Positions 1 through 11,119 of a stretch of 64,000 nt of DNA are shown one piece after another. The notes beneath the pieces are model-generated. The model had not been told where the DNA came from and did not search any database. It saw only the letters and a program-made list of their open reading frames with translations. The first letter of the stretch is position 1; every line of letters begins with the position of its first letter. Both the position numbers and the translations under genes were made by a program. Source of the DNA: Gemmatimonadales bacterium (GTDB lineage Bacteria > Gemmatimonadota > Gemmatimonadetes > Gemmatimonadales > GWC2-71-9); contig DASTUF010000112.1 in assembly GCA_035759745.1 (NCBI GenBank), forward strand, positions 905-64,904. The letters run 5' to 3'.

Positions 1-224
1 CCGGCGGGCACGCGCAGTTCGCCGAACTGGCCTGAGTCCACCCCGTAAGCGGCACGCAAGTCCGGTGCGTCGGCCGGGACGGCGGTGAGTTCCTGGGGCG
101 TCATCAATCGTGCCGGACCAGATGCATCGCGGGCAGGCGACGCCGTCCGACGCGCGCAGGCGGCAGTGAATGCAAGGGCTGCGGCGACCAGCACCACTCG
201 GACCCTCCCGATGTCATTCGCCAT
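1..224 (-). CDS. Partial (N-terminal part only) exported lipoprotein, esterase/alpha-beta-hydrolase-like
   Basis: Reverse-strand ORF with ATG at 224-222 that runs off the window edge, so it has no stop and is absent from the ORF track. Translation MANDIGRVRVVLVAAALAFTAAC... has a signal peptide and lipobox. The later ...YGVDSGQFGELRVPAG resembles esterase N-termini. Confidence 0.4.
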   Translation of the reverse strand, partial: MANDIGRVRVVLVAAALAFTAACARRTASPARDASGPARLMTPQELTAVPADAPDLRAAYGVDSGQFGELRVPA

Positions 225-340
225 GGCACACATATGCATCTCATTGTCCAGCTTCGCAATCCTCCCCTTGCCGCCCCCCTTCACCCGCCCATATACTGAA
301 ACACCGCCCTGCAAGCATTTGTCTCACCCGGGAGTGCCCC

Positions 341-2260
341 ATGTCCCAGCCACTCACTCGCCTCACCCAGCCGCTCGTTCGCGAGGGTGGAGTCCTCCGT
401 CCCGCCTCCTGGGAGGCCGCGCTCGATCGCGCCGCCGAGGGGTTCCGGAAGGCGAAGGATCAGCACGGAGGCGATGCTCTCGCGACCATGAGCTGCTCCA
501 AGGCCAGCAACGAGATGAACTACCTGGCCGCGAAGCTCACGCGGGTTGCGTTCGGCACCCACAACATCGACAGCTGCAACCGAACGTGACACGCTCCTAG
601 CGTCGTCGGTCTGGCGACGGTGTTTGGTGCCGGTGGGGGGACGACCTCCTACCGCGAGGTGGAAGAGACCGACGTCATCTTCCTCTGGGGAGCGAACGCC
701 CGGGAAAACCACCCGATCTTCTTCCATCATGTCCTGAAGGCGCTCCACCGCGGCGCGAAGCTCTTTGCCGTGGATCCGCGCCGCACGGCCTCGGCCCAGT
801 GGGCCGACGACTGGCTCGGCCTCCATGTGGGCACCGACATCGCCCTTGCTCATGCGATGGCTCGGGTGATCATCCACGCCGGTCTCGCCAACGAGGAGTT
901 CATCCGGCGGGCGACGACCGGCTACGAGGAATATCGCCAGGAGGTGGAGCAGTTCCCGCTCGATGTGGCGGAGCGGATCACCGGCGTCCCGGCCGAGGTG
1001 ATCGAGCGCGCTGCGCTGACCTACGCCCGCGCCGGACGTGCCGTGATCTGCTGGACCCTCGGCATCACCGAGCACCACAACGGGACCGACAACGTCTTCG
1101 CCCTGATCAACCTGTCGCTGCTGACCGGCCACATGGGGCGCTACGGCTCGGGCCTCAGCCCCCTCCGGGGCCAGAACAACGTGCAGGGTGGCGGCGACAT
1201 GGGCGCGATTCCCAACCGGCTGGTCGGGTTCCAGGACTGGACCACCGACGCCGACGTGCGCCAGCGGTTCGAGCGCGCGTGGAACACCACGCTGAAGCCG
1301 GAGTACGGCAAGAATCTCTCGGAGATGTTCGAGGCGATGGAGCATGGCGAGATCCGCGCGGTCTATGCCATCGGCGAGAACCCGGCGCGCTCTGAAGCCG
1401 ACCAGGGCCGCGCCGAACGCCTGATTCGCGGCCTCGACCACCTGGTGGTGCAGGACATCTTCCTCACCCGGACGGCGGAGCTGGCCACCGTGGTGCTGCC
1501 GGCCTCGGCCAGCTGGTGCGAAGCGGAAGGCACCGTCACCAACAGCGAGCGCCGGGTACAGCGGGTGCGCAAGGCGCTGGATCCGCCGTTCGACGCCCGC
1601 GACGACATGTGGATCATCGCCGAAATCGCCCAGCGCCTGGGCTACGATTGGGGGCACCCGACCGCCGAGGAGCTCTGGAACGAGCTGCGGACCCTCGCAC
1701 CTATGTTTGCGGGAATGAGTTACGAGCGGCTGGAAAAGGAAGGCGGGCTGCAGTGGCCCTGCTACGACGAGAATCATCCAGGCGAGCTGTTCCTGCACTC
1801 GCGGCTCTGGGCCGAGCCGCGCGGTGGCCCGCCGGCGCCATTCATGGCGGTGAAGCACGAGATGCCGGTTGAGATGCCGGACGACGAATATCCGTTCCAG
1901 CTCACCACCGGTCGGCGGCTCGACTCCTACAACACCGGGGTTCAGTCCAGTGGCTACACTTCCCCGCTCCGGCGCGGCGAATCGGTGGACATGTCGCCCG
2001 AGGACGTGGCCCGCCTCGGCTTCGCCGATGGCGAGCGTGTGCGCATCTCGTCACGGCGAGGCAGCGTGACCGCCCCGGTGCGAATCGACCACAGCCTCAG
2101 GCCCGGACTGGTGTTCATGACCTTCCATTTCCAGGACGACGTGCGCACCAACCTGCTCACCATCGACGCCACGGACCCGAAGTCGGGCACCGCCGAGTTC
2201 AAGGCGTGCGCAGTGCGGATTGATCCGGTCGAAGCCACCGTCACCGCCTCGATAGCCTGA
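341..2260 (+). CDS. fdhA: Formate dehydrogenase catalytic Mo/W-bisPGD subunit, selenocysteine-containing (C-terminal part of a split FdsA/FdhA)
   Basis: ORFs 170..589 and 620..2260 are in the same frame and are separated only by TGA 587-589. The joined product reads ...THNIDSCNRT-U-HAPSVVGL..., matching the E. coli FdhF CARV-U-HGPSVAGL active site. It also has RGQNNVQGGGDMG and a C-terminal ...TAEFKACAVRI. The likely start is ATG 341 (MSQPLTRL). Confidence 0.85.
587..630 (+). promoter_or_regulatory. UGA-Sec codon plus bacterial SECIS hairpin
   Basis: The stem C601-C607 pairs with G613-G619 (one G-U pair) and the apical loop is GGUCU. GGUCUG begins 19 nt after the UGA, the same sequence and spacing as the E. 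coli fdhF SECIS. Confidence 0.7.
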
Positions 2261-2263
2261 GCC

Positions 2264-4099
2264 GTGGACCTTCATCTCCTCGACGCCGAACCGATCGCCG
2301 AAGAGCGCGACGCCATTGACCAGCTTCTTGGTTCGGAGGCAGGCGGATGGACTGGGGGAGAACGCACCGCGACCGATCATCATAGCGCGGCGGGCGGGCA
2401 TGCAGCGCGAGACCAGCGGCACCTGCTGCTGCCGGCGTTGCGCGCGCTGCAGTTACGGGTGGGCTGGATCAGCGAGGGTGGCCTCAACTACATCTGCGAG
2501 CGGCTGACCATTCCTCCGGCTGACGCCTACGGCGTCGCCACCTTCTATGCGCTGCTCTCCACAACGCCGCGCCCGCCGCGAGTCGTCCATGTCTGCGACG
2601 ACATCGCGTGCCGCACCCGCGGCGCGGACCGCCTCTGCGACGAACTCGAGAAGAATGTCGGCAAGAGCGGCTGGCTTCGCAGTCCCTGCCTGGGCCTGTG
2701 CGAGCAGGCACCGGCCGCCTTCCTCACGGAGGCGGGCCCGGAGCCGGTAGAGCTGCTCTTCGGCGGAGCCACGGCCGCGTCAGTCGCCAGGGTGCTGGCG
2801 GGCGACCACGCGCCAGCGAAGCTGCCCCACCTCCCGCTGCCGCAGGCGGGCAGCCTGGATCTCGGGCTGCTGCGGCGGATCGGGATCGTCGATCCGTCGA
2901 GCTTCGAGGACTATCGGGCCCACGATGGGTACAAGTCGCTGGCGAAGGCGGCGCACCTGGGTCCCGAAGGGGTGCGCAAGGAAGTAACCGACGCTCGGCT
3001 GGCCGGGCGCGGCGGCGCCGCGTTCCCCACCGGCAGGAAGTGGGACGCGGTGGCGCAGCAGGCCGAGACCGAGCGGTACATCATTGCCAACGCAGACGAA
3101 TCGGAGCCGGGTACGTTCAAGGACCGGGTGGTGATGGAAGGCGACCCGTTCAGCGTGATCGAGGCGATGACTATCGCGGGGTACGCGACCGGTGCCGAGA
3201 AGGGCTACATCTATCTCCGGGGCGAGTATCCGCTGGCGCGCGAACGGTTGCAGCACGCGATTGAGGAGGCGCGCTCGAACGGCATGCTGGGCGAGTCGGT
3301 GCATGGGCTGGGCGTGAAATTCGACATCGAGCTGCGGGTCGGCGCCGGGGCGTACATCTGCGGGGAAGAGACGGCGATCTTCAACTCGATCGAGGGTTAT
3401 CGGGGCGAGCCGCGAAACAAGCCGCCCTTCCCGGTCGAAGCGGGACTCTTCGGCAAGCCCACGGTCGTCAACAACGTCGAGACCCTGATCAACGTACTCG
3501 AGATCCTGCGCGTGGGCGGCGCGAAGTACGCCGAGACCGGCAGCGGTGTCTCGACCGGGCCACGGTTGTTCTGCCTGTCGGGATCGGTGCAACGCCCCGG
3601 GGTGTATGAAGTGGCGCATGGAACCTCGCTGCGCGACCTCATTGCGCTGGCCGGCGGCGTGGCCGGCGGACGCGAGCTCCGGGCGGTGTTGCTGGGTGGT
3701 GCCGCGGGCGGGTTCATCCGGCCCGAGGAAATTGACATGCCGCTCACCTTCGAGGCCACCCGTGCGGCGGGCAGTACGCTGGGCTCGGGCGTGGTCATGC
3801 TGTTCGACGACCAGGTGGACCTGGTGGACATCCTGCGCCGCATCGCCGCTTTCTTCCGCGACGAATCGTGCGGCCAGTGTGTTCCCTGCCGGGTGGGGAC
3901 GGTGCGGCAGGAAGAGGCGCTGCACCGGATCCTGGCCGGCAAGCCGAAGGGCGGCATGGCCACGGAGCGGGCATTGCTGGAGGAGATCGGGCTGGCGATG
4001 AAGGACGCGTCGATCTGCGGACTGGGCCAGACCGCCTATGGCGCCGTCGAGTCGGCCATCAAGCGACTCGGCCTTTTCGAGCAAGCGGCTGCCTCATGA
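2264..4099 (+). CDS. NuoE-like/NuoF-like fusion (diaphorase subunit of NAD-dependent formate dehydrogenase, FdsG-FdsB type)
   Basis: The N-terminal part has thioredoxin-like 2Fe-2S motifs (HVCDDIACR ... CLGLCEQAP). The C-terminal part has the NuoF FMN/NAD motifs (GRGGAAFPTGRKW, GAGAYICGEETA) and the 4Fe-4S motif ESCGQCVPCR. It starts 4 nt after the fdhA stop. Confidence 0.85.
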   Translation: MDLHLLDAEPIAEERDAIDQLLGSEAGGWTGGERTATDHHSAAGGHAARDQRHLLLPALRALQLRVGWISEGGLNYICERLTIPPADAYGVATFYALLSTTPRPPRVVHVCDDIACRTRGADRLCDELEKNVGKSGWLRSPCLGLCEQAPAAFLTEAGPEPVELLFGGATAASVARVLAGDHAPAKLPHLPLPQAGSLDLGLLRRIGIVDPSSFEDYRAHDGYKSLAKAAHLGPEGVRKEVTDARLAGRGGAAFPTGRKWDAVAQQAETERYIIANADESEPGTFKDRVVMEGDPFSVIEAMTIAGYATGAEKGYIYLRGEYPLARERLQHAIEEARSNGMLGESVHGLGVKFDIELRVGAGAYICGEETAIFNSIEGYRGEPRNKPPFPVEAGLFGKPTVVNNVETLINVLEILRVGGAKYAETGSGVSTGPRLFCLSGSVQRPGVYEVAHGTSLRDLIALAGGVAGGRELRAVLLGGAAGGFIRPEEIDMPLTFEATRAAGSTLGSGVVMLFDDQVDLVDILRRIAAFFRDESCGQCVPCRVGTVRQEEALHRILAGKPKGGMATERALLEEIGLAMKDASICGLGQTAYGAVESAIKRLGLFEQAAAS

Positions 4100-5064
4100 C
4101 GGCACTGATTCCCATCCAACCGCTGCGGAAGCGCATCGAGATCACCGTCGACGGCAGGCCGGTCTCGGTGCCGGAAGGCAGCACCATTCTGGATGCCTGC
4201 CGCCAGTCCGACATCGAGGTGCCGACGCTGTGCTATCTCGACACGCTTCATCCCGTCAACGTCTGCCGGGTGTGCGTGGTGGAGGTCGAGGGTTCGCGGG
4301 TGCTGGTGCCGAGCTGCTCGCGGAAGGTAGAACCGGGAATGGTGGTGAAGACCGATTCGGAGCGGGTGCGCCACAGCCGGAAGATGGTGCTGGAGTTCCT
4401 GGCATCTTCGGTGGACCTCTCGACCACGCCCGAGGTGGCGGAGTGGCTCGCCGATTACGCGGCCGATCCCGAGCGCTACGGCCCGCCTGCTCCGCCGAGC
4501 GCCGCCGGCGAGCGGGACAGCCACGGGCCGGGGCATCATGAGGCGGTCGCGCCGGGATTCCGTGCGACCGTGGCGCAGCCGGTCAAGCTGGACAACGACC
4601 TCTATATCCGCGACTACGGCAAGTGCATCCTCTGCTACAAGTGCGTCGAGGCGTGCGGCAAGGATGCCCAGAACACCTTTGCCCTGACGGTGGCGGGACG
4701 GGGGTTCGACGCGAGGATCTCGACCGAGTTCGCGGTGCTTCTGCCCCAGTCGGCCTGCGTGTATTGCGGCAACTGCATCGGAGTGTGCCCCACCGGGGCG
4801 CTGATGTTCAAGACCGAGTTCGACCGCCGGGCGGCCGGCACCTGGGACGAATCGGCGCAGGAAGTCACCACCACCATCTGTCCCTACTGCGGCGTGGGTT
4901 GCAACCTCGAGCTCCACGTCCAGGGCAACGAGATCGTCAAGGTCACCTCGCCGCTGGACCACTCGGTGACTTCGGGCAACCTCTGCATCAAGGGTCGCTT
5001 CGGCTGGAAGTTCGTGCAGAGCCGCGGGCCGGTGCGCCAGTCGGAGGGTGTGGACCGGGGCTGA
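4096..5064 (+). CDS. NuoG-like Fe-S domain protein (N-terminal part of the split FdsA/FdhA)
   Basis: ATG 4096 overlaps the upstream stop (ATGA). It has a 2Fe-2S region (CRVCVVEV), two ferredoxin-type motifs (CILCYKCVEAC, CVYCGNCIGVCP), then the Mo-enzyme N-terminal 4Fe-4S CPYCGVGC...LCIKGRFGW. The protein ends at that point. Confidence 0.8.
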   Translation: MTALIPIQPLRKRIEITVDGRPVSVPEGSTILDACRQSDIEVPTLCYLDTLHPVNVCRVCVVEVEGSRVLVPSCSRKVEPGMVVKTDSERVRHSRKMVLEFLASSVDLSTTPEVAEWLADYAADPERYGPPAPPSAAGERDSHGPGHHEAVAPGFRATVAQPVKLDNDLYIRDYGKCILCYKCVEACGKDAQNTFALTVAGRGFDARISTEFAVLLPQSACVYCGNCIGVCPTGALMFKTEFDRRAAGTWDESAQEVTTTICPYCGVGCNLELHVQGNEIVKVTSPLDHSVTSGNLCIKGRFGWKFVQSRGPVRQSEGVDRG

Positions 5065-5917
5065 CCACACGCTGCGGGTGGGTGTAGACGGTCAGCCGGT
5101 CCTTCCGCGCAAAACCCACCAGCGTCATTCCTGACTCTCGCGCCACCCGCACCGCCAGTGCCGTAGGTCCCGAGATCGCCGCCAGGATCGGCGCGCCCAG
5201 TGCACTCGCCTTCTGCACCATCTCGAAGCTGGCCCTGCTGGTCACCACCACGAATCCCTCGTCGGCATTCACCTTCTGCTTCAGCGCCGCGCCCACCAGC
5301 TTGTCGAGCGCGTTGTGGCGGCCTACGTCCTCGCGGGCGAGCGTGATGGTGCCGTCGAGCGTGGCCCAGCCGGCGGCGTGGACCGCGCCCGACTCGCGAT
5401 TGAGGCGCTGATGCTCGGTGAGCGTGTCCAGCGCACGGTGAATGACGCCTGGCTCCACTGGCCGTCCTGGCGCCACCGTGTGGAGTGTCTTCAGGACTCC
5501 TTCGAGATCGTTGGCTCCGCAGATTCCGCAACCGGTGCGGCCCGACAGCCGCCGGGCGCGGGATTCGATCTCCTTCGCGCGCTGGTGGGAGATCGAGATT
5601 TTCACCTCTATGCCCCGGCTCAGCCGCTCGACCGTGACGCCGAGCAGCTCATCGGGTGACGCGACCAGTTCCTCGGTGATGCTGAATCCGACGGCGAAAT
5701 CCTCGAGGTCCTCGGGCGTCGCCATCATCACCACGTGGGGCACGTGGTTGTACACCAGCACGACAGGGGTCTCCTCGACGATGCTGCCCTGCGTGGTGGT
5801 CTCCCTCCCGTCCCTCCATTCGACCGCCTCCACCTCCAGCAGCGGGCCGGCGTGACCCAACCGTCGGAAACCGGCCGGTCCCAGGGGGCCACTGGAGCTG
5901 TCAGAGGTCGGTGCCAT
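4988..5917 (-). CDS. fdhD: Formate dehydrogenase accessory sulfurtransferase FdhD
   Basis: Carries the signature SGRTGCGICG and ...GRHNALDKL.... It is convergent with the FDH genes. The C-terminal tail overlaps the 3' end of 4096..5064. Confidence 0.85.
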   Translation of the reverse strand: MAPTSDSSSGPLGPAGFRRLGHAGPLLEVEAVEWRDGRETTTQGSIVEETPVVLVYNHVPHVVMMATPEDLEDFAVGFSITEELVASPDELLGVTVERLSRGIEVKISISHQRAKEIESRARRLSGRTGCGICGANDLEGVLKTLHTVAPGRPVEPGVIHRALDTLTEHQRLNRESGAVHAAGWATLDGTITLAREDVGRHNALDKLVGAALKQKVNADEGFVVVTSRASFEMVQKASALGAPILAAISGPTALAVRVARESGMTLVGFARKDRLTVYTHPQRVVSPGPHPPTGAPARGSARTSSRSDP

Positions 5918-10882: not shown

Positions 10883-10955
10883 TTGCCCCTCCTGGGCTCG
10901 AACCAGGACTCTCCTGATCCAGAGTCAGGCGTGTTGCCAGTTACACCAAGGGGCA
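10883..10955 (-). tRNA. tRNA-Gln (anticodon CUG)
   Basis: The reverse complement folds as a cloverleaf. Acceptor UGCCCCU/AGGGGCA, anticodon stem CCUGA/UCAGG with loop CUCUGGA (CUG), and T-arm CCUGGUUCGAGCCCAGG. CCA is not encoded. Confidence 0.85.
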
Positions 10956-10972
10956 GAATCTCGAATTTTCAA

Positions 10973-11045
10973 TGGAGCTGAGGGGGATCGAACCCCTGAC
11001 CTCTGCAGTGCGATTGCAGCGCTCTCCCAGCTGAGCTACAGCCCC
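10973..11045 (-). tRNA. tRNA-Ala (anticodon CGC)
   Basis: The reverse complement is GGGGCUGUAGCUCAGCUGGGAGAGCGCUGCAAUCGCACUGCAGAGGUCAGGGGUUCGAUCCCCCUCAGCUCCA. It has the G3:U70 Ala identity pair and the anticodon loop AUCGCAC. CCA is not encoded. Confidence 0.9.
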
Positions 11046-11119
11046 AGAGAGGCACAAAGGTAGCCAGGGGCCGGACTTCGCGAAAGTTCCGGCCCCGAGG
11101 CACGCCCGTTCCCCGGCCC

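Follow-up and report, generated by a model that had tools for sequence, protein, structure and literature searches.

A probable selenocysteine codon and its conserved SECIS hairpin in the split formate dehydrogenase gene of an uncultured Gemmatimonadales bacterium

A UGA codon inside a formate dehydrogenase gene of an uncultured Gemmatimonadales bacterium is very probably a genuine selenocysteine codon, a reading of the comparative sequence data to which we assign a probability of roughly 93%. The codon occupies positions 587-589 of the window, by which we mean the whole stretch of 64,000 nucleotides analysed (contig DASTUF010000112.1, assembly GCA_035759745.1), and it lies within an fdhA-type catalytic subunit gene at 341-2260 on the forward strand, where it specifies residue 83 of 639. 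A selenocysteine-containing FdhA with a SECIS element just 3' of its UGA is the textbook bacterial case, and the gene described here is a further example of it. It adds nothing new to the mechanism of bacterial selenocysteine recoding. Its main value is for annotation, in that one selenoprotein of 639 residues should replace two fragments, and hundreds of public homologues need correcting in the same way.

One reading frame across the UGA

A single frame runs from ATG 341 to the TGA at 2258-2260, and TGA 587-589 is its sole internal stop. The first-pass annotation of this DNA had described two open reading frames, 170..589 and 620..2260, that share a frame and are split by one TGA. As a mechanical list of open reading frames this is right, but ATG 170 is ruled out as the gene start and is replaced by ATG 341: orthologue alignments begin at residue 1 counted from ATG 341, and the corresponding 82-aa protein in the public collection begins MSQPLT.

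The 341-2260 product matches the Molybdopterin oxidoreductase family (PF00384, 235.4 bits) and the molybdopterin dinucleotide-binding family (Molydop_binding, PF01568, 99.8 bits), and its best matches among solved structures are the FdhF of the Thermoanaerobacter kivui HDCR, archaeal formate dehydrogenases, Methylobacterium extorquens Fdh1A, E. coli FdhH and Rhodobacter capsulatus FdsA. Pfam places no N-terminal Molybdop_Fe4S4 domain in this product; it is the product of 4096-5064 that carries the domain, at its C-terminal end (PF04879, 72.4 bits). The formate dehydrogenase alpha equivalog model TIGR01591 is divided in the same way. By itself the catalytic gene reaches 650.6 bits, matching model positions 52-672, and positions 1-51 are matched by the separate Fe-S gene that ends at 5064, at 54.0 bits. 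The curated equivalog cut-off is 666.25 bits, and the two scores simply added, which is a rough measure, give 704.6 bits. Because the Fe4S4 domain is carried on another polypeptide, the enzyme is a split variant of the FdhA/FdhF family rather than a canonical single-chain member.

By BLASTP the protein is 37% identical (439 bits) to the RefSeq entry for E. coli FdhF, a protein annotated as containing selenocysteine. U83, H84 and R276 align with Sec140, His141 and Arg333 of that enzyme, and the TGA is thus exactly at the catalytic selenocysteine position, as had been claimed from the motifs. The aligned stretches read DSCNRT-U-HAPSVVGL here and DCCARV-U-HGPSVAGL in E. coli.

This position is remarkably uniform among related genes. 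In a species-representative genome collection, 79 of the best 80 loci cover the site, and all 79 have TGA. They come from at least eight phyla, including Gemmatimonadota, Chloroflexota, Actinomycetota, Acidobacteriota, Dormibacterota, Methylomirabilota and metagenome-assembled genomes (MAGs) labelled Planctomycetales and Eisenbacteria; the closest assembly among these best 80 loci is JAICQR01, at 94% identity. Ten genomes out of 40 relatives encode an orthologue (65-94% identity), each with exactly one in-frame TGA, at the residue-83 codon, so that with the window's own genome the count is 11/11. The Cys-type homologues in the relatives are of the fused FdsA type, about 1000 aa long, with the motif CTRL-C-HS[ST]SV and a TGC or TGT codon, and none of them has a hairpin comparable to the one at 602-618 described below. 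In the comparison of both types that the first-pass annotation had recommended, Sec-type genes keep TGA and hairpin and Cys-type genes (CTRL-C-HSTSV) are without the hairpin. Orthologues with two separate halves, or with a plain stop and no hairpin, had been named as the refuting case; no orthologue is of this kind, and all 79 loci keep both TGA and hairpin. Flags for one TGA in three relatives (G001 and G004, with no selB, and G009) were discarded, as the TGA lies outside the catalytic motif of Cys-type enzymes.

Public gene calls do not cross the UGA. The expectation that automated callers would truncate the gene is borne out by the public protein collection, which holds the exact 82-aa and 546-aa pieces as separate predicted proteins and does not hold the read-through product of 639 residues. 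The best 120 public homologues are all 533-593 aa long, cover 82-85% of the protein and are named 'formate dehydrogenase major subunit' or 'YjgC'. The codon at 620, the supposed downstream start, is GTG in 48 orthologues, GTC in 12, GTA in 9 and GTT in 1, and GTG 620 is therefore not a conserved start.

A hairpin maintained beyond coding constraint

Within the coding sequence, 12 nt 3' of the UGA, begins the core of a candidate SECIS hairpin (602-618, forward strand), with a stem formed by 602-607 and 613-618 and an apical loop GGUCU at 608-612. With the U of UGA taken as nucleotide 1, the hexamer GGTCTG at 608-613 begins at nucleotide 22, and the earlier observation that its sequence and spacing are those of E. 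coli fdhF is correct. The loop is GGUCU in 78 of the 79 loci and GGGCU in the remaining one.

The six inner pairs are standard pairs in all 68 distinct homologous sequences. The first-pass annotation had drawn a 7-bp stem, 601-607 with 613-619; these six pairs of it stand, but the outer pair C601-G619, present in the window, is optional and is conserved in only 39 of the 68 sequences (CG in 32, GC in 4, UA in 3, unpaired in 29). Changes within the stem preserve pairing: 606-614 is C-G in 30 sequences, U-G in 29 and U-A in 9, and never C-A; pair 603-615 is U-A or U-G; and 604-616 becomes U-A in a paralogue. For the 602-607/613-618 helix, all of the five measures but the count of pair types exceed each of 500 shuffles, and slid registers all score below it. 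The covariation at 606-614 coincides with Val/Ala and Ala/Thr changes in the protein, and the nucleotide conservation, GGUCUG included, falls partly on conserved Gly-Leu codons, so protein constraint contributes.

Synonymous sites provide a measure of what the protein does not explain. Across 79 orthologues, the five codons +5 to +9 past the UGA read GTC, GTC (or GCC for Ala), GGT, CTG and GCG (or ACG for Thr); they show no synonymous variation, with a codon entropy of 0-0.1 bit. By comparison, among another 112 codons of 4- or 6-fold degeneracy in a stretch of 230 codons, entropy averages 1.46 bit and never falls under 0.15. At the Gly positions nearby in this alignment, GGT is not the codon favoured. 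The suppression starts and stops exactly at the helix, and codon +10 varies freely at its third position, nucleotide 33, which takes part in the non-conserved seventh pair. The hexamer alone could partly reflect protein homology; the fixed synonymous choice points to a constraint on the RNA.

When the region is folded, as had been suggested earlier, the energy does not convince by itself. The 54-nt stretch 587-640 is no more stable than shuffles (RNAfold, z = -0.15), and its minimum-energy register is a 10-bp stem with loop GUCUGG, unlike the conserved register. However, the 25-nt core at 598-622 does fold in the conserved register, with z = -2.96 and 1 of 200 shuffles as good. The 10-bp register was rejected: 25 of the 68 homologues break one of its internal pairs and 36 break another, and its covariation is not above that of shuffles. 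No Rfam family matches the hairpin at gathering level; the SECIS_3 model (RF01989) reaches 17.7 bits (E = 0.12; 584-645, forward strand) against a gathering threshold of 63, a match too weak to be usable as evidence. The case that the hairpin is more than chance consequently comes from the pairs, their covariation and the synonymous sites and not from folding energy, which alone is weak. On these comparative sequence data, which are decisive, the structure is evidently maintained beyond coding constraint.

Selenocysteine machinery and a second selenoprotein gene

The first-pass annotation had proposed a search of the rest of the genome for selA, selB, selD and tRNA-Sec, and all four are present in the window's own genome, a draft of 2.67 Mb in 122 contigs that is 91.8% complete. 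With 64.6 bits the tRNA-Sec is well over its cut-off, 47 bits, and ARAGORN calls it as a 98-nt tRNA-SeC with anticodon TCA. The scores for selA, selD and selB are 497, 395 and 314 bits, and selB includes GTP_EFTU, the SelB beta-barrel and, as SECIS-binding winged helices, SelB-wing_2 and SelB-wing_3 (PF09106, PF09107). In the 11 genomes that carry the TGA-type gene, namely the window's own and the ten relatives, selB is over its cut-off without exception, and the genomes that yielded no selB (G001, G002, G004, G005, G006 and G037, some of them incomplete) have Cys-type formate dehydrogenase only.

Within the genus the trait looks patchy, with selB over the cut-off in 3 of the 9 other genomes (G001-G009), many of which are incomplete (69-91%). 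A selB match at E <= 1e-40 is present in 4 of the 9, and several of the genomes without selB carry only the Cys-type FdsA of about 1000 aa.

A crude genome-wide scan for in-frame TGA codons followed by a hairpin with a GGT loop, which misses other loops and stems shorter than 6 bp, gave 78 candidates, of which only fdhA and one further gene looked like real proteins. The latter is an Rdx (SelW-like) selenoprotein gene outside the window (G000:C14:52661-52903, equivalent to L129:362-604, forward strand; 80 aa; PF10262, 74.3 bits), with the motif MHVQIEYCVV-U-NYE (CxxU). The sequence after its TGA, AGCCGCC-GGUCU-GGCGGCU, gives a 7-bp helix whose loop is identical to that of fdhA. Gene and TGA are conserved in 32 of 41 genomes (the window's own and the 40 relatives); the hairpin, too, is conserved in relatives, with one compensatory change. 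Two unrelated selenoprotein genes thus share a loop that the organism's SelB would read.

Both hairpins (602-618 of the window for fdhA, L129:409-427 for Rdx) are written in codons for x-x-Gly-Leu-Ala-x, GTC GTC GGT CTG GCG ACG in fdhA and GCC GCC GGT CTG GCG GCN in Rdx, and their loops, counted from the U of UGA, begin at nucleotide 22 (fdhA) and nucleotide 25 (Rdx). It appears that the RNA element forces the peptide motif G-L-A on the protein, 7-9 residues after Sec in FdhA and 8-10 in Rdx.

Operon context and related loci

The catalytic gene is followed on the same strand by a gene for a NuoE-NuoF fusion, the diaphorase part of the enzyme (2264-4099; PF01257, PF01512, PF10589; TIGR01959, 438.7 bits), with a 2Fe-2S thioredoxin-like domain, an FMN/NADH site and a 4Fe-4S site. 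Fdh1B is a known case of a beta subunit in which NuoE and NuoF are fused. The third gene (4096-5064, forward strand; PF13510, PF12838, PF04879) corresponds to the N-terminal part of canonical FdsA as a separate Fe-S subunit, with Fer2_4, two 4Fe-4S and Molybdop_Fe4S4 domains, and its ATG overlaps the stop of the NuoE-NuoF gene in the ATGA at 4096-4099. Convergent with the operon is an ORF on the reverse strand (4988-5917) that, from the motif GRHNALDK in its translation, we take to be fdhD-like. FdhD is the sulfurtransferase that matures formate dehydrogenase, and homologues of this ORF adjoin the operon in many related loci. By their coordinates, the Fe-S gene, which ends at 5064, and this ORF, which ends at 4988, overlap by 77 bp. 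Elsewhere in the window, the adjacent genes for tRNA-Gln(CTG) and tRNA-Ala(CGC) at 10883-11046 on the reverse strand are the only Rfam matches at gathering level.

The order of catalytic subunit (lacking the Fe4S4 domain), NuoE-NuoF fusion and Fe-S subunit is kept across several phyla in nearly all related loci with enough flanking sequence. In Gemmatimonadota the catalytic and NuoE-NuoF genes are nearly adjacent; 14 loci, mostly Chloroflexota MAGs, have 0.6-4.2 kb of extra DNA between them (L081, L085, L086, L089, L094, L100, L101, L104, L105, L111, L112, L114, L121 and L124). Two further loci, L030 (G022:C2) and L031 (G017:C54), hold a second and more distant Sec-type formate dehydrogenase at 45% identity, with read-through frames of 916-939 aa, a length which suggests that this enzyme is fused to its Fe-S domains. 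Its hairpin has the same GGUCU loop and compensatory changes, the outer pair being G-C in place of C-G and an inner pair U-A in place of C-G.

Alternative explanations

One alternative is that the TGA is a plain stop, leaving either a pseudogene or a pair of separate polypeptides, one of 82 aa and the other of about 546 aa. Gene callers produce exactly these pieces, a GTG is present at 620 in the window, and TGA does serve as a stop elsewhere in the operon (2258-2260 and 4097-4099). Yet this TGA falls exactly on the catalytic Sec/Cys site and is conserved in 79/79 loci across phyla, with protein constraint on both of its flanks. The first piece would contain no complete domain and the second would lack the metal ligand, the supposed start at 620 is not conserved as a start codon, and the genome has the full machinery for selenocysteine. 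We consider this explanation very unlikely. A sequencing or assembly error in a TGC or TGT codon, conceivable in a metagenome-assembled draft of 122 contigs, is more improbable still; the identical TGA in 79 independent public assemblies and ten relatives refutes it in practice.

It is also conceivable that the UGA is read through without selenocysteine, by near-cognate suppression or by insertion of Cys or Trp, and that the conserved nucleotides reflect codon or protein constraint only. The Cys-type homologues of relatives are active enzymes, and the longer region does not fold with significant stability, both of which fit such a process. However, protein constraint does not account for an absence of synonymous variation that is confined to the five codons of the hairpin, and its stem pairs covary. 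Two further observations speak against readthrough of this kind: the loop recurs in the unrelated Rdx selenoprotein gene elsewhere in the genome, and the TGA-type gene co-occurs with selB. We judge it as improbable as a plain stop, and decoding of the UGA as selenocysteine is the explanation we retain.

Proposed mechanism and implications

We propose that UGA 587-589 is decoded as selenocysteine in the following manner. The hairpin at 602-618, with its 6-bp stem and GGUCU loop, would be bound by the organism's own SelB through its C-terminal winged-helix domain, and SelB, carrying Sec-tRNA(Sec), would deliver it to the UGA 12 nt upstream of the stem. The product would be the full-length, 639-residue catalytic subunit of a Mo/W-bis-PGD formate dehydrogenase, in which Sec83 is the predicted metal ligand and His84 and Arg276 the predicted catalytic partners. 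Together with the NuoE-NuoF fusion and the separate Fe-S subunit, this chain would work as an NAD(H)-linked formate dehydrogenase. The sequences show the frame, its homology, the place of the codon, the hairpin's conservation and covariation and the presence of the machinery; from these we infer the binding by SelB, the actual insertion of selenocysteine and the identity of the electron acceptor.

For the organism, this would mean selenium-dependent formate oxidation or CO2 reduction, and at least two selenoproteins. A much more speculative extension, which we offer as a possibility and hold to be rather less likely than its opposite, is that this gene belongs to a cross-phylum, apparently always selenocysteine-containing clade of three-gene NAD-type formate dehydrogenases. 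Since its genes are systematically mis-called, such a clade may have gone largely unnoticed as a selenoenzyme in aerobic soil phyla, among them Gemmatimonadota, Chloroflexota and Actinomycetota. As part of the same tentative hypothesis, SelB of this lineage may recognise the C-GGUCU-G loop, forcing Gly-Leu-Ala downstream of Sec in the unrelated selenoproteins FdhA and Rdx.

Comparison with known systems

Of all bacterial selenoproteins FdhA is the most widespread; one survey counted it in 67 of 75 organisms that use Sec (Zhang et al. 2006, PMC1794560) and a later one in 822 organisms (Peng et al. 2016, PMC5029168), and the gene described here fits the pattern of both. The word Gemmatimonadota has 0 occurrences in the text of Peng et al. 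2016, and our literature search found no paper specifically on a Sec-containing formate dehydrogenase in this phylum.

The closest parallel for the recoding site is E. coli fdhF, which belongs to the same enzyme family and has GGUCUG at the same nucleotide 22. The 43-nt SECIS of E. coli fdhF (TGACACGGCCCATCGGTTGCAGGTCTG...) is found exactly in 5413 E. coli genomes, under annotated fdhF, with GGTCTG at the same offset. The shared hexamer is partly a matter of protein homology, because it encodes the Gly-Leu of the homologous H-x-P-S-V-x-G-L in both genes. The two elements differ in structure. The E. coli element has a GGUC loop on an A-U closing pair, and its upper stem contains the bulged U17, whereas the stem here is a plain 6-bp helix and the 5-nt loop GGUCU is closed by C-G. 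No equivalent of U17 is apparent at 602-618, and the helix has no conserved bulged U, being uninterrupted in the 68 sequences. The proteins differ as well: the one described here is without the N-terminal Fe4S4 domain that FdhF carries, and its gene belongs to an NAD-type operon rather than to a hydrogenlyase context.

Among solved structures, the best match is the FdhF of the T. kivui HDCR, one of the cytoplasmic FdhF-like enzymes (PDB 7qv7; 530.8 bits over residues 6-632). That chain has Cys, in CARL-C-HAPTV, where the protein here would have Sec, and it keeps its own Fe4S4 domain, unlike the protein here. The NAD-dependent enzymes M. extorquens Fdh1AB (PDB 7e5z, 7vw6) and R. capsulatus FdsGBA (6tg9, 6tga) have a homologous catalytic domain (469 and 415 bits, respectively) and a NuoE/NuoF-like partner. 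However, each of their alpha subunits is one chain of 958-995 residues that carries NuoG-like Fe-S domains fused to its N-terminus, whereas in the Gemmatimonadales enzyme the alpha subunit is split, its Fe-S part being encoded by the third gene and its catalytic part, by our reading, using selenocysteine.
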